A stretch of 63,403 nucleotides of DNA, the filler included, from Stramenopiles sp. TOSAG23-6 (Eukaryota), in NCBI GenBank assembly GCA_900128565.1. It is 10 parts of 10 records of this genome, joined end to end, with 100 filler letters (N's around TTAATTAATTAA, not from the genome) between each part and the next. Parts side by side here need not be neighbours in the genome. Positions count along the whole stretch, not along the records: positions 8,608 to 17,087 come from LT636447.1; 9 more parts are not named here. One strand, written 5' to 3'. Both the position numbers and the translations under genes were made by a program. The notes below the pieces were generated by a model. That model made no database searches and had not been told where the DNA came from. It was given only the letters and a program-made list of their open reading frames with translations. Of this stretch, positions 1 to 63,403 are shown piece after piece. Position 1 is the stretch's first letter. Each line of letters begins with the position of its first letter.

Positions 1-606
1 CTCATGCGAGGAATGCTGCTTGAAAGCACCACGTTAGACCACTCCGTCATTCGTGAGAAATACTCCAGACGTTGCGTAACCTGAATTACTTAATGGCAAA
101 AAAATAATCAAATGTTTGAAATATTTTTTCACAATCCATATCGGAAAACAAAGTCAAAAATGTCTCCAATGTCAAACGGATTCAATAATTTGCGGGGGGA
201 GGACTTGTGGCATTTGCAAACTAGATTTTCCTGGTCATGCCAGTGATGCGTGTAAAAACTGTTTACAATCAAAATGTGCTCCTACATTATACGATTGTAG
301 TGGTCTTTCAAAAAATGAATACCCTTCACCGTGGAATTAGGGTTTACAAAATATTCAAAAAAAATTTAAAATTTTGTTAGGTACAAAATTTCGTACTAAA
401 AAACAATTTCAAAAAAAATAAAATAATACATGCCATTAAATTTGTGTGTGTTACTTAAAAACTTTATTTCCTTTTTAGACTTTCAAAACGAAAATCAAAC
501 TACGTAGAAAATTTCATCCAGAATTAGCGTCCTTATGCCGGATGCAAATCTGAAAAACAATTTTACGGCTAGTGTTAAATGATCATTCAGAAGAGACATT
601 ATACGA

Positions 607-1502
607 TCATTCAGAAGAGACATTAGGGTTAGGGAAAAGCATTTGGCGAACGACTGGTTGCAAATCTTGAAAAACAATTTTAAGACGTGATTCCAGTGTA
701 TTGTCACAAACAATGCGGTTAGAAGCACCAAGGAGGATGACGCCACCAGCGCCATTGTCTGGGAGGTAGTTGGAATCTAACCGAGTCGTAATTTTCACAT
801 CTCGGCCGCAATCTTCCTTCATCAATTTCGTATAAGCTTTTTCCGCTACCCTTGTTAGCTTGGTACACAATTTTAGATCACACTCTCTACACTTAATCTT
901 AACATTTTCTTCCATTAGCGTCACAAGTCCTTGTACCAATAACCTCTCGAGCAATTTTTCATACTCAGCACTTTTCGAAAACCCCACAAGATTATTTTGG
1001 GCCGTTGTCAACATATTACTTAAAAGCTCTTCACGAGAATTCATCTTACGCACAAGCTCTGATTGTGATGCTTTTGCTTTCATACTGTATGGTGGTTAAA
1101 TATATAAATCGTTTGAACTTTGTCAATTATTTTAATCATAGAATACAAAAATATTAGTAAATATTGACTGGTCCTGGGAAACATCAGAATATATATGATG
1201 AAACCAAACTCAAGGGAAAAAATATCCGAATAGTGGTATATTTCACTCGAATCGAGCATAATAATTCTGAAGTATGTATACAAAACACTTTACACTTACA
1301 TTCGCTTCTTTACGTTGAGGTCCTTCACCATCTGGTCATACTGGTCTTTGATAGACTGGCGACCCTGTACCGAAAGCAAAGATAATTGTTTATCTCGCTC
1401 TTGTTCCGTCTTTAACCTAATTTCTGCAACCTTCTCTTTTGCTTCCTGGTCAATAAAGGCACACATCTGCTGGATTTGCTTCCGAGCTTCTCCATCATTC
1501 AT
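607..1502 (-). CDS. ATP6V1E: V-type ATPase subunit E (2 exons: 1502-1300, 1084-607)
   Basis: MNDGEARKQIQQMCAFIDQEAKEK...GGVIL...RIVCDNTLESRL matches the V-ATPase E family; the exons join in frame as KKR-I-MKAK. Confidence 0.95.
1085..1299 (-). other. Canonical GT-AG spliceosomal intron (215 nt)
   Basis: GTAAGT...CCATACAG; removal restores the V-ATPase E frame; lacks the family core motif. Confidence 0.9.
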
Positions 1503-3885: not shown

Positions 3886-6428
3886 ATGTCGGAAGAAAAA
3901 TCAGCCCCCGCGAAGTTTCTGACACAAGCTTTGAAAACATTGACTCGTCAAAAGCCGCGTGCTTCTAAGTCTGAACAGACGAATATCTATGATACAGCAT
4001 CAGTGCCAAGTGCGATGGCAATTAGGGCTCGAATCCGGGCTGCTGATACGAATGTCTTGGAAAACAGAAAGAGTGGGCGTGATGAGTTTGGTCGTCCTCT
4101 GCAAATAAGTAGAAACGAAGCATGGGCAGAACATAGTCACAAAGCTTTGATAGCAACCCGTATAAAGGAAAGAGCAAGTAGAAAAGAAAGACGATTTCGC
4201 CGTAGAAAGAAAAACATCGCTCAGTCTGCTGCTGATAAAGAAATAGCAAAAGGTCCAGATGTTGTAACTCGCAAGGAAAGGGTAAGTGCATGGGATGGAA
4301 GTCGAAGTGATTCAGGAAGACTTCACAAGTGCCCTGAATGTAACTTTCATGGTACCAGAAGACGAGTTCGCGCTCATATAGCCACAACTCATCAACGAAA
4401 TATCGAGTCAATGCCTCGATGGGCAGAGGAAGTACCGATTTTGGATAAATTTGGAAATGTCGTCCCGCATCGGTGTGTGCTTTGTGCAAGAACCTTTTCT
4501 TCAAAACGTCACTTAGAAGTGCACGTCGATACCTCACACCCACAAATAGACCAAAGACAAATATTTTCCTGCTCAATGTGTAAATATTCCACATCATCAT
4601 CAAAAGGGCTAATGGAACATCAATTATCGCGACATCCTCGTTTAATGACGTATGAATGTACAAAACCAAACTGTGGTCAAAGATTTAGTACCGTCCGGGA
4701 ATTGCGAATACACAAAACTGCTCATAATATGGGCTCCGATGATGAAGATAACAAAAATGATAAAAATAATAAGGATCTACATCCGGAATTAAATAATGTA
4801 GCAGAATTTCCGGGTGTAAAAGAAATCAAAACTGGAGGGGAAGATGAGGCTTTCGAATACTCCAAAACTCCCATTCCTATACCCTTGCCAAGTACTGGAA
4901 TAAATCGACCAATTGATCCCCAAAAACCTCACCGATGCTCGAGATGTTTCCGAGATTTTCGTACGAAAGGTTTACTTGTGATTCATGATCGCCGGGTACA
5001 TCTAAAACGTCGTTCTGCGAAAGAAAATACTCTTAACCGTAGAGAAGAGCGCAAGTCTGAAAAGAGACAAGTCAAACAAGGATTAAAACTTCTCGATGAA
5101 GCAATTTTGTCTGTCACAAAAGAGATGAAAGCGGTAGATACAGCGAGAGGTAATAGACAACGCATTTTTCTGGAGAAAACACCTCGAATTGAGAAAACCA
5201 ATGATAATTGTAATAATAACAGTAATCGTAAACAAACATATCGAATTGAGAAAAACGATCATAATAGTAATAATAATAGTAATCTTAAACTGGATAATTC
5301 AAACAGCATCATGAGCGGAAAGTCCATAGAAACAAAAACTACAGAAGAAATTTCTAAAATGAAATTACGTTTCGACAAAATTCTTTCAGAGGAAGGTGAA
5401 AAAAATACCGCGAAAAAAACATTCGGTTGTAAATTTTGTGATAGGAGATTCAAATCAGAAAATCATCGCGATCTACACCAAATAAATTCGCATAAAGTAG
5501 AAGTGGATGAAACTCCAAACATAAAGGAAGTTAGTGAAAATATAAATAACAAACCCTATAAGTGTAATGTTTGTCATCGTAGATTCAAAATGATGCGACA
5601 TATGTATGTTTTATTTTTTTTCAAATTCGATATTTTTTTCGTACGAAATTTTGTACCTAACGATTTTTTTTAGATTTTTTTTGAAATATTTTTCCAAAAT
5701 ACATGCAACTTCATCAATCAACACATTCGGCTGTAAACCATAAACGAAGTAGCAAAATAATTAAAAAAGAAACAAACCCGCAGACTAGTGATAATACCAA
5801 AACAGAAAAACATGTGACATTTAATGATAGTGATACTATTATTCAACAGAAAAATAATGATGATAAAAAATCAAGTATCAAAGGACCTCCAAGTGTTAAT
5901 TCAAGTAAATCAAACGAAGAAAAATTTGATATAATGAGTTTAATGAAAAGAATGTCTCAAAGTGTTCCGGAAGGTGACGAGATAGCGGCTCTACAGGCAA
6001 AGATATCTACTGAAATGAATTCCATTGGATCTAGCTCTAATTTTGATATAAAATCATTACAAGGTATGTCTCATGGTGCTCAAATGCTTGGAAACTTCGG
6101 ACAAACAAATTTAGATGTGCCCACTGAGTTGCATTCAATGGATGATTTAAATATTTTCCGCTCCCGAATACAACAACAAGCCGCAGCAATGGCACCAATG
6201 ATGACAACCCTTGGCATAGATAACACAAATCCCATACAGCAAATGTTGGAAGGAAAAAACAAATATGCCATGTCTAATAAAGAAAGCAGGGCTGGTGCAC
6301 TTGCTACAGGAATGTCAAAAAAGTATAAGATGAAGTGTAGCGTTTGTCATAGAGGATTTAATTCCGAAAGGTTATGGAAATTACATGAAATGTCACACGC
6401 AAATAAGCAGCACCAAAAGCGTTTATAG
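3886..6428 (+). CDS. Multi-C2H2 zinc-finger protein (exons 3886-5603, 5705-6428)
   Basis: Many CxxC-x12-HxxxH fingers; the splice restores the finger CNVCHRRFKMMRHMQLHQSTH. Confidence 0.85.
5604..5704 (+). other. Family intron, GT-AT (101 nt)
   Basis: AT|GTATGT...TTCGTACGAAATTTTGTACCTAAC...CCAAAATACAT|G; removal gives exact C2H2 spacing. Confidence 0.85.
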
Positions 6429-10287: not shown

Positions 10288-13200
10288 ATGGCGGAAATTA
10301 CATTTTTCTGTGACTTGCATGACTTTGCATCAAAGCTGAATAAGGATTGCGAGGATTTGAAACGCCGGGCAGATAATCCAAAACGGGGAAGAAGTGACAA
10401 ACACCAGGTTGGTAAATTTTGCGAAAAACTGAAGACACAAGCCAGGGAAATATTTGAAGAAATAACTTCACTTGAGGCTGCGCTTTCAATGGGAAAGGAA
10501 TCCGAGAAATTTACGGCTGCACCTGTAGCGGCTACCTCTCTTGAACTTTTTAAAAGTAATTGCGAACTAACAGACGCATTGGAGAAGCACCTTTCAGCAT
10601 ACGGCTATACTCCTTCAAATAAACCAAATGTCTTAGACGCATCTCAAAATTTATCATTCAATACATCAGATCAAAAAAATGATGACGGGTCTACTATTCT
10701 TTCGNCTGGNGTTNTTTTTTGAAAACAACGAAGACAAGGAAAATGTATATAATGGGAATGCTTCATTTCAATCTCGACAATATCTTGAAGAGTGCGTAGA
10801 TAATCTAAGTACTGTTGCTCTTCGTGGAGAAGACAGCGAAAAAGACTGTTTCGGAAGTGATATTTCTGTCGTAGGAAATAATAATATTTCAAATGGAGGT
10901 GTTGACTTATCCACTGGACTTTCTGGTTGTGTACAAAATACTCATGAGAACCTAGAAAATACGAATCATAGTATGGATGATGTAGAAAATGTAGATCGGG
11001 TAAATTATTCTCACCATAAAGGATCATCACGTGTAGATGAATATGTCTTCTCACCAAGATCTAATTCTAATGCTTCAATTAATGATGAAAATAAATTAAT
11101 TGGTAATGGCGAAGCACAACCGAGCCATTCGGTCGAAAATGAAATAGACAAAATAGAACAAATCAAAACGTCGTTTTCAATGGAAAACGTGTGTCCTTAT
11201 TCTGGAGATAAACATTCTTCTATGCAAACAGACATGATAGATTCTATGGATAATAATATTGATGACAATGCTCCTGAGCAGCAATGTACCACACCTACGG
11301 CGAACAGGGAGAAAGCAATTCACTCTGAAGTCCCACGACCATGTATGTTTTTTTTTTTCAAATTTCGAATTTTTTTTTTCATACGAAATTTTGTACCTAA
11401 CAAATTTTAGGTTTTTTTTTCAAATATTTTTCCAAAATACATCTGCAATGAAAGTTGGTTTTACTTATCAGGATGAAGAACCACTTACACCTTCTCTCGC
11501 AGATTTCGGTTTTTCTTCTTCAACGTTGACAATGCTTGGGCAAGACAAATTTTGTTCACCGAATGTGAATCAACGAACTAGTGTCCTTTCTACACACTCA
11601 CCTCACAGGAGACTTAGTGAGATGGCTAGTCCAGTGAAAACCCCTGCTGTAAGTAATTTACAACAAAGCGAATGGTCCATTGGTCCACGTACCAATAAAG
11701 CGCTAAGGCATGTAACCCCTGATGTAAAATCAGGCACCTTAAGCAATAGTCGGAATGATTTCACACAGACAACAATGTGTTTACTCAGAGCTCAGCCAAG
11801 ATTTTGTCATTCAGAGGGAGGGCGTTCAGTTTCATCCATTCCAACTCCGACGACACCAACTATGGCACAAATTTGTGGAGTTGCCTCAGGGAATAGAATC
11901 CCAGCGAATCGTAAAGCTGCTATTGAGGGTGTTGCTGCACAAAAATCATTATTTTCCAAAAGTGAAGGGAATGTATGTTTTATTTTTTTTAAATTTTAAA
12001 TTTTGAATTTATTTTTTTTTAGTACGCAATTTTGTGCCTAACGAATTTTACAAAAAAAAAAATTTTTTCACAATGCATGTACACAGCAAAAATCAAAACG
12101 TACGGTCAAATGTATTGAATAATAGTAGAGTAATGCATAAATGCCTCCCCAAAACTCCAATGATTGCTGCAAATTCAATTCCAATATCACCAATGGATAT
12201 AGATGATGTTGATTCACCAATGACACAAATTAGAAAGGATCCTGCGTTAAGTAGAATGTTGCTACCAAAAACTCCAATTTTACCGCCAATGCCAGAAATG
12301 TCTCAGAAATATGAGACTGAAACATCATCGAAAGAATATATAGACAGTATTGTAGAACCGAAAAATATATCTGAAAATATATCTGAAAATATATCTGAAA
12401 ATATATCTGAAAATATATCTGAAAATTCCCTAGTCGAGTCTCAACAAATAGATAAATCTGTCGCCACCCCAGTGAAATCGTCTGTGGTTACAACAAATCA
12501 GGATTTCGTTTCACCACTGTTATCACCATCGGATCACACGCATGATTTTGGTACACGATTAAACTTAGTCAATAATCAAGATAGCGATTCAGATGACGGA
12601 ACTATTGAGACGAAATCAAATAATCAGTTTGTTGGATTTGAGGATGATGATGAAGATATCAGACAACTTAGTGAACAGCTGGAGTCAGATGCTCGTATTG
12701 CTAAGCTGCCGAGACGATCACCACGACTTTTAAAAAAAGCATCGCAAATGAAAGTATCTTTTATGTCACCGAAACCTTCAGAGATGAAAATGGATGACGG
12801 TTCTCCTTTGGACACTTCAAAATGTACTCCTTCGCCTGTACAGAAATTACCTCGGCGATCTCCCCGTCTCTGTCGTAAAAATGCGGGGAACACTCCAAAG
12901 GCTACACGGAGAACTCCTCTATCTATTCACACATCTGAAAGTAGCAAGAAAATAAAAAAATGGCCGAAATCACCACGACTGCGCGCGAGAGCACAAGCAG
13001 AAGCTCTCGCAGAAAAAGAAGCACAAGAAGAAAAGGAACAAAGATGCAATACTTCAACGACTGACACACTGGAGAGAGTTAGTAAAGAGGAATTTTCCGG
13101 CGGTCCTAATTATTTGAAAGCTCAATTTACCCTGGAGAGTATCAATGAGGTAATTGATAGGATCAATGCTCATGGCGGCACTGTGTTTTCGACAGAATTG

Positions 13201-13684: not shown

Positions 13685-14567
13685 TTAATCATTCATATTT
13701 AGAACAGGAGCACTTTCCAATGGTAATATACTCTGACATATTGGGCACTTATGGTCCCTATTCGAGTCGCGAGCATTCTTTGCAAGTATGCAGTGTGAAA
13801 AAAAAATTTATATTAAAAATTTGTTAGGTACGGAATTTGATACAAAAAAAAATTGAAATTCAATTTTGAAAACGTACGTTCGTTCACAGTGTGTGTGCAG
13901 GGAAACTTTGCATTTTTTATTCACACATTTGAATGTATCACATACAAAATAATTACATATGACACATTCTGGACATTCAAATTCTTCCAATAGATCCTGG
14001 AGCTCTAGCAAACTACGAACGCCAAGAGTAAAACAATTATTTTCTACTCTAGAATTCTCAATCCAACCGCCCTTGGTAAGATCCCGAACTAATTTGTTCA
14101 CACGTTCGACAGAAGGAGGTCGATTTTGATCACATGATTTAGTAACTTGTTGAAGAACACGGATATTGACAACATCAACTTCGTTGATTGTACCAGACTT
14201 CTGGATAATCAACTGTACCAAACATTTGAAGAATTCTAATTGCCACTGTTCTAATTGAGTTGACCATTCTGCAAAATTATCTTTTTCTTTATTTACCAAG
14301 CACCAAAAGAGTGTATCGTCACGTTCGTGTGTCATTTTCTCCACCTTCATCTTTACCATATTTAATGTTACGTTAACACGAGTTAGACAAGGATCCAACG
14401 CTTCATCGAGATTTTCAATGTTTTCTTTGCTGTATTGATCAGATATTTCCTTAAACGCCGTCTTCAACTGACCATCACTCATAAAGCGTCTCAGCATGAA
14501 TTCCTGTATTATTGCGCAATGCACATTTGTAGACTCATCAAGCAATTTTTGAGTCGCCTNNNNACAT
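13685..14567 (-). CDS. NSE1: Nse1-like SMC5/6 subunit (winged helix + RING); start approximate because of Ns
   Basis: FTLGVRSLLEL motif and RING CVIC...HTHC...CPIC, completed only after intron removal. Confidence 0.75.
13788..13877 (-). other. Family intron, GT-AT (90 nt)
   Basis: AC|GTACGT...CCGTACCTAAC...CACACTGCAT|A; restores the terminal CPIC of the RING. Confidence 0.8.
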
Positions 14568-29424: not shown

Positions 29425-29993
29425 TTGGATGGTCAAGATTACAGTATATAAATAATCGAGGGGGAAAGTGTGAAGATTAAAATATAATGACATTTTTTTT
29501 TGTTAGGTACAAAATTTACTATGAATAAAATCCCAGATTTTGTCAAGTACTCTTTTTCACAGTTCTTTGGTCAATAAATTTCTTTGGTATTGAATACATA
29601 AAATACTTTATCCATTATTTGAAATTTATTAGAAATAATAAGTTTCCAAACAACACCATTTTGTTTTCATAGTTCTTCTTTTGTCAATCTGCCTTCCGTA
29701 TTGAATATGAAATATATGAAATATTTACTTCGGGTTTGCATCACTAAATTTTAAAACATGTTTGTTCCAAATTGAAAAGTTTTTAAAGTTTTTGAGTGTC
29801 TTTTTCGAGTGAGTGGTTGACAACATGGTACCATTGTATTGGTAGAAATTTGCTACCGTTGACTTGTCATATGTGACTAGCTAGGATACGATACTGTAAT
29901 ACAAGAAACAAGAAGAAGTGCTAATCTATAGTGCAAAGGCCAACCATAAATCCCACCAAACCCAAATTATAACGCTAGCAAGAATATTGGGAA

Positions 29994-32851: not shown

Positions 32852-34210
32852 TTAAATAAACTTATAATCAGCCATTTCTGATAATAAGACGTCGTCAATT
32901 TCTACTAACAAATTATAATCCTTATTTTGTATATGTTCTCTTTCATGAACGTGACTATTAGGACTACTTACGTTATTCAAATCAAAGAAATCATTTGAAT
33001 AAACATGTATTGTGAAAAAATATTTAAAAAAAAAATCGTTAGGTACAAAATTTACTATGAAAAAAATTCGAAATTGAAAAAAAAAAAAAAAACGTACATT
33101 ACTCTCGGAATTTTGTTCAGAAGAATGATGTACAGTTTTTTTAATTACAGGAGGTTGTATCATTTGAGATGGTTGGATTTGATGCAAATGACTTGTACTA
33201 AAATTTGCTATTTGTTTCATGGATTTTGCCATAGTCGATTGATCGATTTGCATCAGAGAATTACTCCATTCTGTCATATCACTTTCTCCAATATTTGTAA
33301 ACATGCTATCAAATGAAGGCATTGCATTATTTTCCTGGTGATCTGTCGTATACGACGGAACATTTTCACTCCAATTAAAATCAAAGTTCATATCATATTG
33401 CATTGTATTTCCATTTGTCGTTCCATTTGTTGGATTCCACACTAGATTTTCATGAGTAATATTTGGTGAACAATTTTTTGCTTTTCTCCCCAAAAAATTC
33501 AATGGACTATAATTATTAGTGCGTTCAAGAGTAATATTTGGTGAGCATTTTTTTACTTTTTTCCCCAAAAAATTCAATGGAATATTGCTCTTTGCCAAAG
33601 TTAACATATCTACATTTAGACGACCCTTCGAGTTTTCTAGTTGTTTTTTTTTCTTGCAAATTGGTTTGATGTGATTTATTGTTTTTCTTGGTTTTGACGA
33701 AGTAACTCTTTTTTGCGATGTTGTACTTTTCATCTTTTTGGTTTTCAGAATATTATCTCCTTTCTTGATCTTCTTTCTAGATTTGTTGAAAAGAACATAA
33801 ATTGTGAAAAAAAAAAAAAGTTTGAAATTTGTTAGGTACAAAATTTCGTACTAAAAAAAAATAAATTTGAAATTCATAATGGAAAAACGTACTGTTTTGG
33901 CAGCCGCAGTTGCTATCAAAGCTCTCTTTTTCTCATTTGCTGTGACAACGTGTGATTTTCTACGATCGAGTGAGGGATGCTTTTCTAGTTTGAGAGTTTT
34001 TTTTAATTCTTCCTTCAACCGGGATTTTTCTTGACGTTGACGTTTGCTACGATATGTATTTTGGAAAAATATTTCAAAAAAAAAAAAAGTAAAATTTGTT
34101 AGGTACAAAATTTCGTACGAAAAAAAAAACGAATTTGAAAAAAAAAAATAAAACATACATACGCTTCGCATTTATCTGTCTGACGACAACGAGTTTCAAA
34201 TTGATTTGAT
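32852..34210 (-). CDS. Hypothetical basic protein with 3 family introns, 5' truncated
   Basis: Exons join in frame after removal of the GT-AT elements. Confidence 0.55.
33005..33097 (-). other. Family intron, GT-AT (93 nt, stop-free 3n)
   Basis: AT|GTACGT...GTACCTAAC...CACAATACAT|G. Confidence 0.75.
33797..33892 (-). other. Family intron, GT-AT (96 nt)
   Basis: CA|GTACGT...core...CACAATTTAT|G; joins AAKT-VLFNK. Confidence 0.75.
34054..34162 (-). other. Family intron, GT-AT (boundaries ambiguous by a few nt)
   Basis: GTATGTATGT...core...CCAAAATACAT. Confidence 0.65.
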
Positions 34211-44542: not shown

Positions 44543-46570
44543 ATGTCTTACAATAGGGAATATCAGATGACCAAAGAGAGAAGAGAAGCCACAACAACTC
44601 CAATACCAGCTTTAAATAATCTAGTTGAGGGGAGAGGTGCAGTAGAACGATATTCTGACGACGTAATACAACAACAGGCCTCTGGTGACGCAAAGAAGAT
44701 AAAAAGAGGTCGAAAAACACGACAGAACGCAGGAGGTGAAAAGACGATGGAAATTTCCGGAGATTCACTTAAGTTTCAGTGGCAGAAGAAAATGAATGCA
44801 TTTGCTCAACTGTGGCAGGAAGGTTTACTTTGTGACGTCATTTTACGAGCACAAACAAGTGAAGAAAGCGATACAAAAAAATATACTGAGGAAAAGCCTA
44901 CCTCAGCAGACAACGAAATACGAGAATACAAAGAGGATTCTACATCACTTTGCACCTCGGAAGGGTATAATGTACATGCCGTTGTTGTTGCTGCTTGCTC
45001 TCCATATTTAAAAGCTTTACTTTGTACAGAGGTTGGACAACCTCCATTAAAGTCAAAATCATCTGGATTAAATATTGTTACTTTAAAGGGTATAAGTCCA
45101 GATGCTTTAGAACCACTCATCAAATACATGTACACAGAAAAACTCGATCTTGACTCAGATGTAGTCATGGCTGTTCTTGCTGGTGCAGATATTTTACAAT
45201 TAGATGGTGCAAAGTTTTTTTGTTGTGAATGGCTAGAGCAACACGTTGATGCTTCAAATGCCTTTATGTTCGTTTTATTTTTTTCAAATTCGATGTTTTT
45301 TTTTCGTACGAAATTTCGTATATCGTCAGCTGCGGAACGGTACCATTGTTTTGGTTTGATAAAAACAGTTCAGCAATTTATAGATTTGAACTTTTCTGAT
45401 ATAGTAAATGATCCATCTTTTCTTCTCATTAAAGAAACAGTTCTTCAAGAACTTCTCATTCGTGATCAAATTCGAGTTTTAGCAGAATCCGAAGTAATTG
45501 AAGCACTTGTTAAATGGACAAATTATGAGGAGAATAGATTAGAAGCATTTGGACGTATACTAGATTCGGGTGCAGTTAGACTTTCCCTTCTCACTGGTAC
45601 TGAGTTGAATCAGTTTAATATTACAACAATGGTCCAGTCTTCCAGACAGGCAATGAGAGCTGTAGGACGCGAGGCGTGTTCTCGCCTTTCAGGATCTCTT
45701 CGAGTTTTTCAACATAGACGATGGATGCCTGTGGCTCCAAGACATTGTGCACATCAAATGCAATCTCATCGTCATGCAGTCTACGCTCTCATGGAGTTTC
45801 AGTTAAAGTTAGTCTCTGGTTCTGCAGACAATACCATTAAAATATGGGATCCCCTAACTTGGGAGTGTGAAAAAACATTGACAGGACATACTGATGAAGT
45901 AGCGACATTAGGATCGTGTGCTGGTATGTTGATATCAGGTTCTGGTGATCGTACAATTAAGGTTTGGGACCCTAAATCATGGGTTTGTGCACATACACTT
46001 GAAGGTCATGAAGATGAAGTGTGTGCTCTGACGGTATGTCAAAATAGATTAGTTTCAGCGTCTGCTGATTTTACGGTCCGTATTTGGATTCCTGGAAGAT
46101 GGGAGTGTGAACGTATAGTAGGAAGTCATATGGACGTCGCTGTTGCTTTAACAGTATGTGCCGACAAATTAATTTCAGGATCCGAAGATGGCACTATTAA
46201 GGTATGGGAAGCTGATGGTTGGTCATGTGTGCGAACTATTCATGCTCACACTTCAGCATTAGCTACTTTAACTTGTTGCAATGGTAAAGTAGTTTCTGGA
46301 TCAGCAGATAGTACTATCAAAGTATGGGATCCTCATACTTGGGCATGCGAGCGAACATTAGAAGGACATGCAGATCAAGTGTGTGTATTAGTCGAAGCCG
46401 GAAGTAAATTAATATCAGCATCTGGTGATGCCAACATTAAAATTTGGTCCACTGATAATTGGACGTGTGATAGAACACTGGAAGCACACGACCATCCTGT
46501 AGTTGCACTTTGTACCTGTAGCGGACGACTGGTTTCGGGTAGTGGTGACGGAATTAAAGTATGGGAGTAA
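44543..46570 (+). CDS. BTB-BACK-WD40 protein
   Basis: LCDVIL/HAVVVAACSPY (BTB), BACK helices, seven GH...SGS.D.TIKVW repeats. Confidence 0.85.
   Translation: MSYNREYQMTKERREATTTPIPALNNLVEGRGAVERYSDDVIQQQASGDAKKIKRGRKTRQNAGGEKTMEISGDSLKFQWQKKMNAFAQLWQEGLLCDVILRAQTSEESDTKKYTEEKPTSADNEIREYKEDSTSLCTSEGYNVHAVVVAACSPYLKALLCTEVGQPPLKSKSSGLNIVTLKGISPDALEPLIKYMYTEKLDLDSDVVMAVLAGADILQLDGAKFFCCEWLEQHVDASNAFMFVLFFSNSMFFFRTKFRISSAAERYHCFGLIKTVQQFIDLNFSDIVNDPSFLLIKETVLQELLIRDQIRVLAESEVIEALVKWTNYEENRLEAFGRILDSGAVRLSLLTGTELNQFNITTMVQSSRQAMRAVGREACSRLSGSLRVFQHRRWMPVAPRHCAHQMQSHRHAVYALMEFQLKLVSGSADNTIKIWDPLTWECEKTLTGHTDEVATLGSCAGMLISGSGDRTIKVWDPKSWVCAHTLEGHEDEVCALTVCQNRLVSASADFTVRIWIPGRWECERIVGSHMDVAVALTVCADKLISGSEDGTIKVWEADGWSCVRTIHAHTSALATLTCCNGKVVSGSADSTIKVWDPHTWACERTLEGHADQVCVLVEAGSKLISASGDANIKIWSTDNWTCDRTLEAHDHPVVALCTCSGRLVSGSGDGIKVWE
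45268..45321 (+). other. Truncated family element (54 nt, in frame, lacks CCTAAC)
   Basis: AT|GTTCGTTTT...TTCGTACGAAATTTCGTAT inside the BACK domain. Confidence 0.6.
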
Positions 46571-50802: not shown

Positions 50803-51238
50803 ATTGATGTTTAGCTTTTATTTTTCAATGATATAGTAGTTTGTAATCATTTACGAGAGAATGAATGATGTTATTTTGGGTATACCATCTGTTTTATTTT
50901 TGACATCTACAATTTAAAATTGACATCTGAATTTGAATTCAAAAGTTACCGGGTAACACATAATTAGTTTTTGTTTTTGTCTTTATTGGTATATTTCGGT
51001 ATATTTTTGAATGATTTTTCAGCCTTTTTCACTCATCTCATCATCTCCAAAACACCATAAATGAGACATTTCATGCTTTAAATTTATTATAAACAGATTG
51101 TATAGGTAGTGTTGGATGCTTTGCAATTTTAGGTTTTGTAGTGAAATTTGTACCTAACAAAAAATTTTTTTTCCTTCATATTGTAATTTATTTAGTTGTT
51201 TATATATGCAGATGGCGTAGAAGAATGCAATAACTACT

Positions 51239-51393: not shown

Positions 51394-53068
51394 NTTTTTA
51401 TTTTTTGTATTTTTTGTATTTTTTGTATTTTTTGTATTTTTTGTATTTTTTGTATTTTTTTCTGTTTCAGTAGGGTTAGGGTTTGCATGTGCAAATAATC
51501 GATCAGCTAAAATTCGACCAGCAGCAATTGCAACAGGGGTTAACTCCCATTGACCACATACATCACCCAATGCGTATACATTTTTTGTACCTAAACAATT
51601 TGCATATTGATCAACTTCTATATGTCCATGTAGAGTACAAAAATAGTTCAAAGTATTTTGAAAATTGTTAGGTACAAAAAAAAAATTTTGAAAAAAAAAA
51701 AAATGTTTAGGTACAAAATTTCGTACGAAAAAAACATTTGAAAAAAAAATTTGAAATTTTTTTTGAAAATTTGAAATTGAAACACATACATAATCAGTGA
51801 GAGAAATATTTGCAGATGTAACATCAAGTGGTTGAGTCATTGGTTTTCGACCAATTGCCCAGATAATACAATCAACATCCAAAGGATCATATTTTTCATT
51901 ATTTACAAAAACACGAAATTCAGATTTTTTTTCATTATTTTTTTCATTTTTTTTTTCATTATTTTTTTCATTATTTTTTTCATGATCAAAACGTTCAATA
52001 CTTGAGACACCATTTGAATCACGCATAATAGAAACACCACTTTTTTCTAATCCTTCTTCTACAGCTCTTGACAACATGTATCGTAAAAAATATTTTTTTT
52101 TAATTGTTAGGTATGAAATTTCAAAAAAAAAAAAAATTTCAAAAAAAATTTTAAATTTTTTTTTAAATTATTAGGTACAAAATTTCGTATGAAAAAAAAA
52201 ATTGAAAAAAAAAAAAAAAATCATAATGAAAACAAACATATCATCAAAAGAACGTAAAACACCAGATTTTCTAATTATTAATGATGTTTCAGCTCCAAGA
52301 GCACTTAAAACACCAGCTAACTCAACAGCAATATATCCAGCACCAACAATAGCTACTTTTTTAGGCATTTCATTTAATTCAAAAAAACCATCACTAGTGA
52401 TTCCATGTATTGTAAAAAAAAATTTCAAACATTTTCAAAAAAAAATTGTTAGGTACAAAATTTCGTACGAAAAAAAAAAATTCAAAAAAAAATTTTAAAA
52501 AAATTAACCCTAACCCTAATTATTGTTAAAGACGTACATGCCGTGCTCCAGGAATTTCATTTGGTATTTCTGGATATCCACCAACAGCAATAAGAATATG
52601 ATCTGCAGTATATTCGCCATCACCATCCATTGATACTTTATTTGGAGATAAGAAAGTAGCTTCACCTCGAAGTAGTTCAATACCAGATGTGTCTAGATTT
52701 CGTTCATAAATTCCATTTAAACGTTTTATATATGCATCTCTTCTTTTTTTCATATCTTTCCAATTGAATTGTACATCTGGAACATCAAATCCAAGCTGAG
52801 CGGAATCATGTAATAACTCAGCAAATGAAGCAGCGTTCCACATGACTTTTTTAGGAACACAACCCACATTTACACACGTTCCACCCATCACAGTCTTTTC
52901 AATTAAACCAACACGAGCTCCATGATCAGCCGCACGTCGGGCAGAAGCCATACCACCACTTCCACCACCAATCACTAAATATTCAAAATGTCGATTAGGT
53001 AATGAACTAACACAACGATAAGATTGCTTTGATAGAAGTATTCGACGCATTGAAGAGAATGTGTACAT
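51394..53068 (-). CDS. GSR: Glutathione reductase (3 family introns; 3' end lost in gap)
   Basis: [27 protein letters not shown] and [11 protein letters not shown]; splices restore [21 protein letters not shown] and TDY-GHIEVD. Confidence 0.93.
51628..51789 (-). other. Family intron, GT-AT (162 nt, two core copies, stop-free 3n)
   Basis: AT|GTATGT...CTCTACAT|GGA. Confidence 0.85.
52076..52237 (-). other. Family intron, GT-AT (162 nt, two core copies)
   Basis: AT|GTTTGT...CGATACAT|G. Confidence 0.85.
52405..52537 (-). other. Family intron, GT-AT (133 nt)
   Basis: AT|GTACGT...core...TACAATACAT|GGA. Confidence 0.87.
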
Positions 53069-56301: not shown

Positions 56302-59300
56302 TTATTTTTTTTCATTTTGTAGTATTTCATGTAATATATCTTTTGCTTGAAGTAAATTTTGTAATAAATGACTTTTATCATCCTCTATAATAAATGCCAT
56401 TCCAATATCAGGAAAAACATCACGTAATGGAGTATAATATTTCATACCAAGATTTTGTGTTTTTTTTCTTTTCTCCATTAATCCTCTTAAAAATAAATTT
56501 CGTGTTTTATTTTTTTTCTCTGTATTTCTTTTCACTTTTTCATAACATATTGGAATATCCTTGTGTAATTTACCTTGTAAAAAATATTGCCGCATTTCAA
56601 ACGTTGTAAATATACTGTGAAAAAATATTTCAAAAAATTTTAAATTTTTTTGTTAGGTACAAAATTTCGTATGAAAACAACAAAGAAAGGTTAAGAAAAA
56701 TTAATTTCAAAGACATACATGGACCTTTTTCAATATGTTCATCATTTAAATACCACCAAAATGCATTTCTTTTATTTATCATACTAGGGTTAGGGATATG
56801 ATTTTCTGCAATTTGAAAGGATATTAGAAGAGAGCTTAATACATTACGCAATGTTGTATTTTTTGTATTTTGTATTGATCTAGTAGGGTTAGGGTTTGAT
56901 GTTGTATGTAATGTTTTTTTTCCCATAGTATATTGAGATGCAATAAAGTTATTTCGATGTTGTAATTTTCGTAAATGTAATTCAAGTTTTTTATTTTCCA
57001 TTTTTATATTTTTATGTTTTGTTTCATCATTTGTTGTATCATTTATTATATATTTCATATTGTTTGTATTTTCTGGTAAATGCCATCGAACTTCATTTGT
57101 ATCTTTGTTATAATAGTATTGTCTATGTGAAGAATCAAATGCTATACACCACATTTCATTATTATTATTATCATTATTATTATAATCATTATTATTATTA
57201 TCATTGTTATCATTATTATTATTATCAATAGTATTATTATTATTATTATCAGAAATAATATTTTGAAATTTTTTTGTATTATATTTATATCTTTTTACTT
57301 TTTTAGATTTTACATTTTTATTTCGTGTGAGTAGTCTTTGATGTATTTTATGTATAGATTGTTGATTGGCGACATCAATAATATTGACTTTATCATTACA
57401 ATCACTTTTAAATTCATCATTTTGATTATGTATTTGTTTTTTATATTCAACTATTGTATCAATTTCATATTTATTTGATTTATTTGATTCATTTGATATT
57501 GTATCAATTTCATATTTATTTGATTTTTTTGATTCATTTGATATTGTATCAATTTCATATTTATTTGATTCATTTGATATTGTATCAATTTCATATTTAT
57601 TTGATTCATTTGATATTTTTTCTTGAGTTTGACATTGTAAATGACGTTTTGGATTATTAGTTTTTGTTTCAAGTACAAAATATTGGTATAAACAATCCGA
57701 TTTCATTTCATCATTTAATTCTCTTTGTTTTTCATTATTTCGTGTTGTAAACCATTGTTTATGTTTTTGTTCAAAATATTCAATATATTCAACAATTTGA
57801 TGTTGTACAAAACAATTTGTATCGGAACCTATATTTAATAACCATTTTAATACTTGAATATAAGACGATGTTTCATTATTTAGATTATTCTCTGAAATTG
57901 CTTTTTTATAACATATATCTAAAACAGTCTCGCCATGACACGTGGCACAATCTTTAGAAATACACCATTTTTTTATAGTATTTTTGGGGGTATTTGGGTT
58001 TAGTGCTGCAGTACTATCTGTAGAAGTCTCACATAATGTTGTACATGACTCGTATAAAAGTTTTGCAATATTTAAAAATCGATTTCCACCAGATACATGT
58101 ATTGTGAAACAATATTTTTTTTTTGAAAAAAAATTGTTAGGTACAAAATTTCGTACGAAAATATTTTTTTAAAAAAAAATTAAAAAAAATAAAAACATAC
58201 AGCTATATGTAATGGTGTTTCATATTTTCCATTCCGAGCTTCAGTATCCGCACCATGACCAATAAGAAGCTGAATTAATTTCAAATTACCTGAAATAATG
58301 GCAACATGAAGTGAAGTTGTCCAATAAGGTGGTAATCGTATATTGATATACTGTTGAAAAATATTTCAAGTTTTTTTTTTAAATGTTTGTTAGGTACAAA
58401 ATTTCGTACGAAAAAAAAAATTATAATTTTAAAAAAAATATTTTGATGAAAATGTACATTAATCCATTCACTCTATAAATTTGATTTTTAAATTTCACTT
58501 TTTCATTTAAAATTGGTTTTAATTTTGAATATTCTTGATCAAGACGACCACTAGGATTATCGTGGCATTGTAATAATAAACGAATTTTATCTACATCTTG
58601 TTTTTTTGCACGGGTACATATATTATGAAATAATATTAAAAAAAATATTTTTTTAAATGTTAGGTACAAAATTTCGTACGAAAAAAAAAATTTGAAATTT
58701 CAAAAAAAAAATTTTAAATTTTCAATGAAAACGTACAATATACCATCATATCTTGTGTATATCTATGGAGTAAACCTGCTCGTAGTCCACCTTTAACCAT
58801 TTGATTTTGAATTTTAATGGCACAACTATTTAAAGTTTGATATAAATTTCGACATTTTTTATATCTGAAAAGTCTTTGTAATTGTATCAAATAATATTTT
58901 TTTCTATATTCCTCTATTTTATATACTATAGTTTGAGATAATATTTCAAAAATTTTAAATTTTTGTTAGATATGAAATTTTCTACGAAAAAAAATTAAAA
59001 AAAATTTTAAGTTTTTAATGTTTTAAGTTTTGTTAGGTACAAAATTTCGTACGAAAAAAATAAAATGAAAAAAAAATTCATACCAAAAACATACATACAA
59101 ATTGACGTACAAAACGTTGAATAACAAAAATCGATTGTTTTGCACGTTTATATCGCAACAGTTTTGTCCATTTTCTTATATTTTTTTGTACCAAAAGACA
59201 AGAAGATAATCGTTTAATTGCATCATATACTGTGAAAAAAATATTTCAAAATAAAATATTTTTTCGTTAGGTACAAAATTTCGTACGAAAACCAAAAAAA

Positions 59301-59441
59301 AAAAAATTCAAAATTCAAAAAATTGAAATGAAAACGTATATATTTTGTTACTTTTGTAAACCACAAATTTGAAATTGAATTAATATGCAAATAATCATGA
59401 ATTTTCAAATTAATGATTTTTCTAGCTGAATATCCTCTTAT
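56302..59441 (-). CDS. IQ-ankyrin-WW-GYF-like multidomain protein with at least 6 family introns
   Basis: IQRFVRQF, TSLHVAI/TPLHIAV, W...D...RQYYYN...VRWHLP and WWYL...GPFTTFEMRQYF motifs; exon phases consistent. Confidence 0.75.
56610..56718 (-). other. Family intron, GT-AT (109 nt)
   Basis: AT|GTATGT...core...CACAGTATAT|TT; restores the GYF motif GPF. Confidence 0.85.
58097..58200 (-). other. Family intron, GT-AT (104 nt)
   Basis: CT|GTATGT...core...CACAATACAT|G; restores ankyrin TPLHIA-V. Confidence 0.85.
58346..58457 (-). other. Family intron, GT-AT (112 nt)
   Basis: AT|GTACAT...core...CAACAGTATAT|C. Confidence 0.8.
58618..58736 (-). other. Family intron, GT-AT (119 nt)
   Basis: TT|GTACGT...core...CATAATATAT|G. 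Confidence 0.8.
58921..59098 (-). other. Family intron, two core copies (boundaries ambiguous)
   Basis: TT|GTATGT...ATAGTATAT|AAA. Confidence 0.6.
59225..59339 (-). other. Family intron with ATACGT 5' end (115 nt)
   Basis: AT|ATACGTTTT...core...CACAGTATAT|G. Confidence 0.55.
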
Positions 59442-59633: not shown

Positions 59634-59921
59634 ATTTTTGGTGATAAAATATATCCAAATTCAAAACCATCCTCGACATTATCCGCATTCTGCATACACA
59701 TTTCAACAAAGTCTTGATATTCTTGGATATACGAAATCGAATTCTTTGTAGTACCATTAGGATTAGTTTTTTTTTCATCAGATTTATTTGTACCAAATTC
59801 TGTACCTAACGAATTTTTATTNNNNNNNNNNNNNNNNNNNNNNNNNNNNNNNNNNNNNNNNNNNNTTAATTAATTAANNNNNNNNNNNNNNNNNNNNNNN
59901 NNNNNNNNNNNNNNNNNNNNN

Positions 59922-61015
59922 AGTTAGCTATATCCTCTTGTGGAGATATGTCATCGACAAAGTTAGCTATATCCTCAGTAGTATCGACAGTTATCTTCAT
60001 CATGTCAGATTCGGAATTTATACATGTGTTTTCATCTATCGAACTATTCGCTTCATTATCTAGCGAATTTATTAAAGTGGAAATATCTCTTACGGCAACA
60101 TTGGCAAAAAAAGCCGCAGTTTTAACGGCGTATCCAGACTTTGCATTTTGCTGCTGTCTTTTAAAATTAGAATCTACCTCGCGTATAGTTGCGCGGGATA
60201 TAAGAGNTGTCAGTTGAGATGTTCGGTTAATGTATCTTTTTTCTAATATATCCCATTGACATTTAATTTTGTGTACAACAGATTTCTTAATTTTAGTGCA
60301 GGATTGCAATGAACGAAATAAATTGATTTTTACTTTATCGATATTCGATTCAATACTCACACATTGTTCAGTGTAAGTACGCATTGCATTCTCTAAAAAC
60401 ATAATCTGTTGTTCTATATCTTTGATATAATTCAGTCGGAATTCTTTCATATAGTGCCGATGCACTATAGTCCCTACATCTTCCATAGTCTGTAGACTGT
60501 TGATATTTTCTGTGTGACTTTCCATTGCTGCTTTTGCAGCTGAGGATTTTAAAAGCTTCTCAAGAATTTCACAGCGAAACCTCTCCAATTGTTGCGGTGC
60601 TTCTTCAACTTGAGATAAAAACGATTCATGCTCATCTTCATGCTTATGCATAGGGATACTTCCATGATTAGCATGAAGTGAAGATATTTGAAATTCTATT
60701 CGAAGGAGTCCAGCTTCATGTTTGTGAAAAAATATTTAAAATTTGAAATTCGTTAGGTACGGAATTTTCTATGAAAAAAAAAAGATTTGAAATTAATGAT
60801 GAAAACATACAGCCTTACGGACTCGACTTTCAGCACGACTAACATTTTGTGTTATTTCGTTCAAATCGGTAGTCAAAATATCATCTTCTTCATCACTACT
60901 CTCGTCAATATCTTCAAAATCAAAAGGAATTTCATTTATATCTTGGTTTATATCTTGGTCGGTAACTGGATCTTCAAAATTATTTATATCTTGGTGGGTA
61001 ACTGGATCTTCAAAA
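59922..61015 (-). CDS. Coiled-coil protein internal fragment (contig repeated at 61116-62209 and 62310-63403)
   Basis: Open frame across the intron: ESRVRKA-EAGLLRIEF...MHKHEDE. Confidence 0.6.
60718..60810 (-). other. Family intron, GT-AT (93 nt; copies at 61912-62004 and 63106-63198)
   Basis: CT|GTATGT...CCGTACCTAAC...CACAAACAT|G. Confidence 0.8.
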
Positions 61016-63403
61016 NNNNNNNNNNNNNNNNNNNNNNNNNNNNNNNNNNNNNNNNNNNNTTAATTAATTAANNNNNNNNNNNNNNNNNNNNNNNNNNNNN
61101 NNNNNNNNNNNNNNNAGTTAGCTATATCCTCTTGTGGAGATATGTCATCGACAAAGTTAGCTATATCCTCAGTAGTATCGACAGTTATCTTCATCATGTC
61201 AGATTCGGAATTTATACATGTGTTTTCATCTATCGAACTATTCGCTTCATTATCTAGCGAATTTATTAAAGTGGAAATATCTCTTACGGCAACATTGGCA
61301 AAAAAAGCCGCAGTTTTAACGGCGTATCCAGACTTTGCATTTTGCTGCTGTCTTTTAAAATTAGAATCTACCTCGCGTATAGTTGCGCGGGATATAAGAG
61401 NTGTCAGTTGAGATGTTCGGTTAATGTATCTTTTTTCTAATATATCCCATTGACATTTAATTTTGTGTACAACAGATTTCTTAATTTTAGTGCAGGATTG
61501 CAATGAACGAAATAAATTGATTTTTACTTTATCGATATTCGATTCAATACTCACACATTGTTCAGTGTAAGTACGCATTGCATTCTCTAAAAACATAATC
61601 TGTTGTTCTATATCTTTGATATAATTCAGTCGGAATTCTTTCATATAGTGCCGATGCACTATAGTCCCTACATCTTCCATAGTCTGTAGACTGTTGATAT
61701 TTTCTGTGTGACTTTCCATTGCTGCTTTTGCAGCTGAGGATTTTAAAAGCTTCTCAAGAATTTCACAGCGAAACCTCTCCAATTGTTGCGGTGCTTCTTC
61801 AACTTGAGATAAAAACGATTCATGCTCATCTTCATGCTTATGCATAGGGATACTTCCATGATTAGCATGAAGTGAAGATATTTGAAATTCTATTCGAAGG
61901 AGTCCAGCTTCATGTTTGTGAAAAAATATTTAAAATTTGAAATTCGTTAGGTACGGAATTTTCTATGAAAAAAAAAAGATTTGAAATTAATGATGAAAAC
62001 ATACAGCCTTACGGACTCGACTTTCAGCACGACTAACATTTTGTGTTATTTCGTTCAAATCGGTAGTCAAAATATCATCTTCTTCATCACTACTCTCGTC
62101 AATATCTTCAAAATCAAAAGGAATTTCATTTATATCTTGGTTTATATCTTGGTCGGTAACTGGATCTTCAAAATTATTTATATCTTGGTGGGTAACTGGA
62201 TCTTCAAAANNNNNNNNNNNNNNNNNNNNNNNNNNNNNNNNNNNNNNNNNNNNTTAATTAATTAANNNNNNNNNNNNNNNNNNNNNNNNNNNNNNNNNNN
62301 NNNNNNNNNAGTTAGCTATATCCTCTTGTGGAGATATGTCATCGACAAAGTTAGCTATATCCTCAGTAGTATCGACAGTTATCTTCATCATGTCAGATTC
62401 GGAATTTATACATGTGTTTTCATCTATCGAACTATTCGCTTCATTATCTAGCGAATTTATTAAAGTGGAAATATCTCTTACGGCAACATTGGCAAAAAAA
62501 GCCGCAGTTTTAACGGCGTATCCAGACTTTGCATTTTGCTGCTGTCTTTTAAAATTAGAATCTACCTCGCGTATAGTTGCGCGGGATATAAGAGNTGTCA
62601 GTTGAGATGTTCGGTTAATGTATCTTTTTTCTAATATATCCCATTGACATTTAATTTTGTGTACAACAGATTTCTTAATTTTAGTGCAGGATTGCAATGA
62701 ACGAAATAAATTGATTTTTACTTTATCGATATTCGATTCAATACTCACACATTGTTCAGTGTAAGTACGCATTGCATTCTCTAAAAACATAATCTGTTGT
62801 TCTATATCTTTGATATAATTCAGTCGGAATTCTTTCATATAGTGCCGATGCACTATAGTCCCTACATCTTCCATAGTCTGTAGACTGTTGATATTTTCTG
62901 TGTGACTTTCCATTGCTGCTTTTGCAGCTGAGGATTTTAAAAGCTTCTCAAGAATTTCACAGCGAAACCTCTCCAATTGTTGCGGTGCTTCTTCAACTTG
63001 AGATAAAAACGATTCATGCTCATCTTCATGCTTATGCATAGGGATACTTCCATGATTAGCATGAAGTGAAGATATTTGAAATTCTATTCGAAGGAGTCCA
63101 GCTTCATGTTTGTGAAAAAATATTTAAAATTTGAAATTCGTTAGGTACGGAATTTTCTATGAAAAAAAAAAGATTTGAAATTAATGATGAAAACATACAG
63201 CCTTACGGACTCGACTTTCAGCACGACTAACATTTTGTGTTATTTCGTTCAAATCGGTAGTCAAAATATCATCTTCTTCATCACTACTCTCGTCAATATC
63301 TTCAAAATCAAAAGGAATTTCATTTATATCTTGGTTTATATCTTGGTCGGTAACTGGATCTTCAAAATTATTTATATCTTGGTGGGTAACTGGATCTTCA
63401 AAA

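Follow-up and report, generated by a model that had tools for sequence, protein, structure and literature searches.

GT-AT introns and an altered U1 small nuclear RNA in Stramenopiles sp. TOSAG23-6

The focal intron and its family

The window, i.e. the whole 63,403 nucleotide (nt) stretch of DNA analysed here, consists of several contigs of Stramenopiles sp. TOSAG23-6 joined through N linkers. Positions 11343-11442 are one copy of a genome-wide family of introns of ~100 nt, the sequence at 11341-11442 being AT + GTATGTTTT...CCAAAATAC + AT, i.e. AT + GTATG...AATAC + AT. Cutting out the 100 nt at 11343-11442 leaves 384 of 384 codons open up to the next intron; with the only AG between the branch motif and the intron end (11409-11410) in use, the frame meets a stop after 220. 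The last exon of the gene has a weak match to SKA1 (PF07160, E=2.8e-5, below cut-off). The features of this gene, with cuts marked by a caret, are as follows.

11343..11442, plus strand: focal family intron, GT...AT, 100 nt, phase 1; the frame is restored by this cut only
11341..11342, plus strand: exon-terminal AT, left copy of a 2-nt direct repeat, predicted to pair with U10 and A9 of U1 small nuclear RNA (snRNA); its exonic status is taken from a register test on other copies
11343..11351, plus strand: donor site GTATGTTTT, complementary to U1 positions 1-8, with a wobble between G5 and the U at +4
11382..11401, plus strand: family core ending in a branch-like CTAAC, from core matches and the logo; putative branch A at 11400
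11409..11410, plus strand: out-of-frame AG, which by the frame test cannot be the acceptor
11428..11440, plus strand: conserved 3' motif in the logo, a T-run and CCAAAATAC, two bases before the cut
11441..11442, plus strand: intron-terminal AT, the acceptor by calling and the frame test, right copy of the 2-nt direct repeat
11973..12078, plus strand: another family intron in this gene, its second, AT^GT...AT^G

In the assembly searched, which is incomplete (21 Mb, 6,236 eukaryote contigs), the consensus 20-nt core ending CTAAC has 3,935 exact matches, duplicated contigs included, compared with none for a reversed control. Similar introns thus occur in large number at unrelated sites in a single genome, as is the case for introners in the broad sense. 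Unless stated otherwise, the counts below refer to a main sample of 127 distinct copies called in ~484 kb, the matrices used taking no account of the two end bases (-2/-1) of either exon or intron; other intron positions are inflated by the calling. Since 75 of 192 strong core matches, mostly diverged or contig-edge copies, lie outside the called set, that set leans to well conserved copies.

It was originally predicted that AT^G replaces the usual AG^G context at both junctions, with AT before most copies and G after many, and this holds across the sample. The exon ends AT in 87 of the 127 copies, against a background of 7-13% depending on codon phase (binomial p=3e-56), with A at -2 in 97 and T at -1 in 110, neither position having been used in calling. 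The intron ends AT in 102 copies and AG in 5, and the following base is G in 69. A hand tally of the 24 distinct copies in the window gives 19 exon ends AT, the exceptions being CT (twice), TT, AC and CA, and a following G in 15 of the 22 copies with a clear 3' end; the exceptions listed earlier are thereby recovered, save for AA, which was not found in the window.

Donors are GT in 114 copies, AT in 7, GC in 3, GA in 2 and GG in 1, with the logo GTAYGT; the seven copies starting AT (AT-AT or AT-AC, e.g. window 59225-59339, minus strand, and others in L043, L048 and L056) imply that the G at +1 is relaxed too. The CTAAC core, a predicted branch site, lies 23-91 nt (median 39) upstream of the intron end. 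In the logo, a conserved T-run/CAMAATAC motif stands two bases upstream of the cut, so that intron positions -4/-3 are mostly AC.

A truncated, in-frame fragment of the element is apparently kept in the frame of a BTB/WD40-like gene (window ~45260-45330, plus strand). Family copies break up the assembly, many contigs starting or stopping within one. A 1,194-nt block is present three times between linkers at window 59822-63403, an assembly artefact of duplicated contigs which inflates raw counts.

Position of the cuts and the altered U1 snRNA

Evidence on where the cuts lie comes from a glutathione reductase gene in the window, for which all three GT-AT cuts give a gapless alignment with homologues and all six nearby AG alternatives truncate the protein.

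52405..52537, minus strand: glutathione reductase intron 1, GT...AT; gapless against homologues, both AG alternatives truncate
52076..52237, minus strand: intron 2, GT...AT, from the homology test
51628..51789, minus strand: intron 3, GT...AT, from the homology test

Protein homology thus fixes the predicted junctions as GT donors and AT acceptors. Elsewhere the reading frame alone does not force AT on every copy, an in-frame AG being within reach in 47 of 105 non-AG copies. With AT at both junctions, a cut two bases leftward at each end (AT-AC) would yield the same mRNA, and copies whose two dinucleotides differ were therefore used to settle the register. Of 55 such copies with an assigned phase, 16 are synonymous, and all 5 that could be judged favour the GT donor, although the remaining 34 of the 39 non-synonymous cases were not judgeable, which limits what the test adds to the case. 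Of these five, one would acquire a stop codon under the AT-AC shift, and the other four would lose consensus residues of ankyrin, EF-hand, DEAD and AAA motifs.

58097..58200, minus strand: mismatched copy CT^GT...AT in an ankyrin repeat, the upstream dinucleotide thereby being exonic
33797..33892, minus strand: mismatched copy CA^GT...AT
13788..13877, minus strand: mismatched copy AC^GT...AT, Nse1 gene
5604..5704, plus strand: family intron that interrupts a C2H2 zinc finger, AT^GT...AT^G; its removal restores the finger spacing

The sole U1 snRNA found starts AAACGUACAUG, not AUACUUACCUG, its 5' end reading AAACGUACAUGG where Rfam has AUACUUACCUGG. This start is exactly complementary to CAU^GUACGUUU, the exonic U at -1 included. 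The three changes, U2A, U5G and C9A, face +7, +4 and exonic -1, respectively; T is present at +7 in 127 of 127 copies, and C (49) or T (75) at +4. The mean energy of the U1:donor duplex is -9.0 kcal/mol, compared with -6.7 with C9 restored and -1.9 with a canonical U1. A canonical U1 12-mer has 3 matches in the genome (control, 2), none of them within a U1 fold. Because the changed base 9 would pair with the exonic U at -1, exons ending AT should be favoured, which is a likely basis for the spliceosomal preference that the original prediction had put forward as a contributor. More likely than not, the U1 change came after the burst of introns.

The features of a U2-type intron are in part present: the GT donor is complementary to the organism's own U1 and to a standard U6, and the branch motif can pair with the U2 GUAGUA, whereas the AG acceptor is lacking. 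The U2 GUAGUA, the U5 loop and the U6 ACAGAGA are all standard. A search for non-family GT-AG introns gave 9 candidates, of which ~3 are convincing, with exon ends AG, AT and TG. The exonic AT noted earlier before the non-family intron below is indeed seen.

1085..1299, minus strand: non-family GT-AG intron of V-ATPase subunit E (vatE), with exonic AT before it (1299-1085) and no family core

The U5, U2, U1 and U4 genes form one cluster, with U6 elsewhere; they follow one another head to tail within 640 nt, 2-23 nt apart (L013:9-645, contig G000:C1146, plus strand), and this tight spacing suggests a shared transcript or a tight cluster. The protein-binding loops of U1 are diverged. The Prp8 alpha-finger stretch is identical to that of human except for K1514R. 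Prp8 (L153, G000:C84) differs at 21 of 697 near-invariant columns, the 95th percentile of homologues being 19; 8 of the 21 differences are at human 1246-1301, and 6 recur in the sister sequence P0130. U2AF35 was not among 17 zf-CCCH matches, in a search that missed fingers found otherwise. The METTL16 family has no match in the incomplete assembly; its absence would fit a pyrimidine at +4.

A Prp8 tree groups the organism with oomycete and pelagophyte sequences in one clade (support 0.99; a single gene, fast tree), and the host is therefore a stramenopile. Words of one stretch were present in two seawater metatranscriptome runs (7% and 6%), which has no bearing on splicing. Metagenome contigs searched with the U1 start and the core motif, and viral contigs searched with the core, gave 0 matches, the organism's own genome possibly having been excluded.

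Origin of the junction repeat

A single search pattern has 992, 116 and 101 matches in the genome with exon ends AT, GT and TT, respectively. The first 100 for each were hand-counted, with 11, 20 and 22 dropped (duplicates and one false match). Among these matches listed, exons ending AT are followed by introns ending AT in 86 of 89 cases; exons ending GT go with intron ends GT (28), AT (43), TT (2) and other (7; n=80), and exons ending TT with TT (37), AT (36), GT (1) and other (4; n=78). The correlation between exon-terminal and intron-terminal dinucleotides, proposed earlier as a check, is thus strong among the matches listed (Fisher p=1e-15), and the repeat is specific to the locus. Since pairing would give AC and AA, the match is a direct repeat, not pairing. 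Homology does not extend further into the flanks: positions -3 to -8 and +1 to +5 show none, and of 32 tests a single one gave p=0.009, at +6. The idea that copies with an XT exon end and an AT intron end arose when the exon copy decayed at wobble positions is unsupported, mismatches not being enriched there (11/32 versus 33/133, p=0.27). As residues at some mismatched junctions are conserved, the target there cannot have been AT. Matched copies (GT/GT, TT/TT) are closer to other copies than are GT/AT and TT/AT copies (0.75 versus 0.63, p=0.005).

In the youngest subfamily (hand-counted, 3 duplicates dropped), the -2 bases of exon and intron agree in 44 of 49 copies, and the targets are relaxed (AT 21, GT 17, TT 8, other 3). 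A variant with T at +4 accounts for 15 of 17 GT targets and 11 of 32 others (p=3e-4), and for 30 young members ending GT or TT the nearest neighbour has the same end in 23, compared with 15.1 expected (p=0.007). An internal variant, searched for regardless of ends, has a TT end in 5 of 5 copies versus 15 of 89 in a control variant, a count weakened by the fact that four of these five had prompted the choice of the variant. With moderate confidence, the last two bases of the intron thus appear to follow the intron's own lineage in this subfamily. Were the duplication derived from the target, every jump should set the end anew; the ends are often kept, and a core carried by the donor copy therefore fits better. 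Independence of the repeat from element lineage, as expected of a purely target-derived duplication, is not what is seen, although the departure is of moderate strength and absent in older copies.

Taken together, these observations lead us to favour, by a modest degree, a model that combines a donor-carried 2-nt core, AG-free splicing and a re-coded U1. The introns would belong to a single family that spreads itself, and the major spliceosome, having lost the requirement for AG, would cut them at GT and two bases past ...ATAC. On the splicing side, U2A, U5G and C9A would make U1 the exact complement of the family donor, so that it reads CAU^GUAYGUUU. The mobile intron would carry its GT donor, branch motif, 3' motif and own last two bases, the last being inherited, as we infer from the young copies, and would insert into transcribed coding DNA, mostly where the two bases of the target match (a 2-nt homology core, nearly always with T at -1). 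The outcome would be a direct repeat resembling a target-site duplication, imperfect matches giving the XT/AT class.

The orientation of the copies may bear on the route of spread. As many as 125 of 127 are sense in open frames, the other two lying beside neighbouring introns, where 23% would be expected in non-coding DNA (p=1e-12). This bias speaks rather for a route linked to RNA or transcription, with microhomology at the intron's 3' end. A more specific, tentative version is that the last two bases of the intron pair with the target, with no transposon ends involved, and that the family took the place of most introns and led the spliceosome to abandon the AG check and to re-code U1, its exon-reading base included.

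Several points weigh against the favoured model. Splicing at the predicted junctions is derived from frames and homology, and expression of the re-spelled U1 is deduced from its gene, whose match (E=7.5e-12, 54 bits) is under the Rfam cut-off of 69.5. Because the assembly is incomplete, a second U1 could be missing from it, and non-family introns are too few for the effect of the altered U1 on them to be gauged. The lineage signal rests on short, low-complexity sequences and does not appear in older copies (10/18 versus 9.5, p=0.51; 18/43 versus 16.3, p=0.37). The younger look of matched copies is also compatible with a duplication after which ends drifted, or were selected, towards AT. Finally, 3 of 34 young copies have no open frame and ~11 of the 192 core matches, read by hand, are core-only and outside introns, so non-coding insertions do exist. 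In the window, the core motif is seen outside complete introns, in apparently non-coding DNA, at 376-430 (minus), 29502-29520 (minus) and 51139-51158 (plus).

The foremost rival, which we regard as unlikely, is a classic introner derived from a miniature inverted-repeat transposable element (MITE), as originally predicted: a GTAT...ATAC element, moved by a DDE transposase, would make a target-derived 2-bp duplication, mostly at AT, the right copy of which serves as acceptor, with mismatches arising later through exon drift or selection to AT and U1 adapting afterwards. The 2-nt repeat is real, and its copy-by-copy match is the sign of target-site duplication used in the accessible sections of PMC9860276; matched copies look younger, and several DDE transposase genes exist in the genome. 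A plain target-derived origin is opposed by ends that follow intron lineage in young copies, by 6 of 30 near-identical young copies that are mismatched already, by the lack of wobble enrichment and by the sense-coding bias, MITEs being expected in non-coding DNA in both orientations.

The terminal features of the element point the same way. The short inverted repeats are present as originally described (ATGTAT/ATACAT, 4-6 nt), those inside the element amounting to GTAT/ATAC (4 nt), but they do not behave as a functional terminal inverted repeat (TIR): 74 of 80 copies starting GTAC keep A at -6, so there is no +4/-6 covariation, and C at -3 is unlinked to G at +1 (18/42 versus 51/85). A maintained TIR of at least 6 nt, as in a MITE, is thus not found. 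The suggestion that pairing of the ends juxtaposes the splice sites fares no better, the fold of the focal copy being no better than those of shuffled sequences (z=-1.36, 20 of 200 shuffles as good), with the ends paired in the centroid structure only.

Nor was an autonomous transposase with family-matching ends, which had been suggested as a further check, seen among the ends read (one, Harbinger-type), in a search that did not extend to hAT, MULE, CACTA, Helitron or reverse transcriptases. Harbinger/ISL2EU-type transposases have 5 matches, 2 of them distinct, and one ends GGCC then TAA, unlike the family. Two DDE_3 domains are present (C304:6479-6913, C2340:2143-2580), and a tyrosine recombinase has no match in the incomplete assembly. 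A Harbinger-type element (L157, G000:C2432) has two convergent open frames with a shortened intron copy between them. Imperfect inverted repeats of ~45 nt, with GGCCAC and the intron core, flank ~390 nt of non-coding DNA at L041:1930-2375 (G000:C10), their strict pattern having just 2 matches genome-wide; they may be what remains of an ancestral element, or a binding site.

Two further explanations, each improbable, account for inherited ends in other ways. In one, a hairpin-forming transposase brings two donor flank bases and repair converts the exon ends. This would explain both the inherited ends and the two junction classes; donor-derived overhangs are described in the available part of PMC7351741, and piggyBac-type domains occur here in two open frames, of 1,275 and 1,003 codons (C1226:4670-5917 and C256:2805-3440). 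However, no TIR is maintained, coding sequence would be mutated, and the sense-coding bias is left unexplained. In the other, similarly doubtful, the intron reverse splices into mRNA with its end inherited and without duplication, the junction match arising by later selection on acceptor choice. Inherited ends, the lack of a real TIR and the sense-coding bias all fit, but mismatch is tolerated in 43 of 80 and 36 of 78 copies among the matches listed, and we know of no spliceosome step that compares the intron end with the exon end.

An AT-AC reading, with cuts two bases leftward at both ends or with introns of the minor spliceosome, is very improbable. It would give the same mRNA wherever AT is repeated, and positions -4/-3 are mostly AC; however, U1 and U6 pair in the GT register and the shift fails in every judged case. 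The donor is GTAYGT, whereas the U12-type consensus is RTATCCT, and U6atac has no match in the incomplete assembly, U11 and U12 not having been searched. That the copies are unspliced, i.e. excised from DNA, in dead genes or artefacts of an assembly that does have duplicated contigs, is hardly credible given the strand-specific donor, branch-like and orientation signals, the copies in essential genes and the U1 match.

Relation to known systems and implications

The nearest parallel is Fritillaria. In F. borealis and F. pellucida, 34% and 44% of introns have a 3' AT according to the accessible text of PMC13326754 and PMC11282704, which also describes YAY at both junctions, a transposon-like origin and use of the major spliceosome, as here. 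By contrast, as far as the same text goes, Fritillaria donors are mostly AG, the U1 5' end is standard and adaptation is via U2AF paralogues and m6A; in the present family the GT donor is kept, the branch-like motif is strong and the U1 sequence itself is changed. In that last respect it resembles Entamoeba, Mastigamoeba and Physarum, where the available portion of bioRxiv 2022.06.08.495308 describes U1 pairing regions altered to fit the donor, that of Mastigamoeba having the same ACGUAC. The changes described there face intron positions only, with no AG-less acceptors, whereas here U1 matches a family that is expanding, and the base facing the last nucleotide of the exon is altered too. The accessible part of PMC10158995 holds nothing bearing on U1 changes.

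As with introners of Micromonas, Aureococcus, Chrysochromulina and other organisms, similar introns occupy unrelated sites, with the donor in the element and the acceptor in the junction repeat, and some introner families lack TIRs (PMC9860276 and PMC11282704, in the sections available). Those sections describe AG acceptors and take the repeat to come from the target, whereas here it is 2 nt, mostly AT, and apparently partly inherited. Donor-derived flank bases also move with the element in piggyBac, though there, in the part of PMC7351741 available, with four bases (TTAA), long TIRs and an overhang that does not choose the target. The introner elements of Amoebophrya, another marine protist, are likewise non-canonical repeated introns with junction repeats, but U1 is apparently absent, the repeats are 3-5 nt and the termini are varied (PMC11282704). 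A literature search, covering mostly non-subscription papers and not supplementary tables of introner families, found no stramenopile dominated by GT-AT introns and no natural change of the exon-facing U1 base. The family is convergent with Fritillaria within a theme of introners and non-canonical splicing, the new elements being the re-coded U1 and the possibly inherited repeat.

It is an old question whether the AG end of exons resembles the end of introns through an insertion footprint or through spliceosome preference. Here both letters have changed jointly, and the causes are separable, with a U1 base on the exon side and a 2-nt repeat that tracks lineage on the intron side. Displacement of AG by a 3' AT, known from Fritillaria, has here taken place independently in a second lineage, with a different adaptation. 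In practical terms, gene prediction that assumes GT-AG will mis-splice most of these genes. Should inheritance of the ends be real, junction repeats could not, in this family, be read in the usual way as target-site duplications, and the way in which introns are gained could be put to the test. If the RNA-linked reading is true, the family would be a natural experiment in which a mobile intron and U1 together determine the proto-splice site, and introns would be gained by a mechanism that is new. The family offers an uncommon opportunity to study the multiplication of introns together with the adaptation of the splicing machinery.
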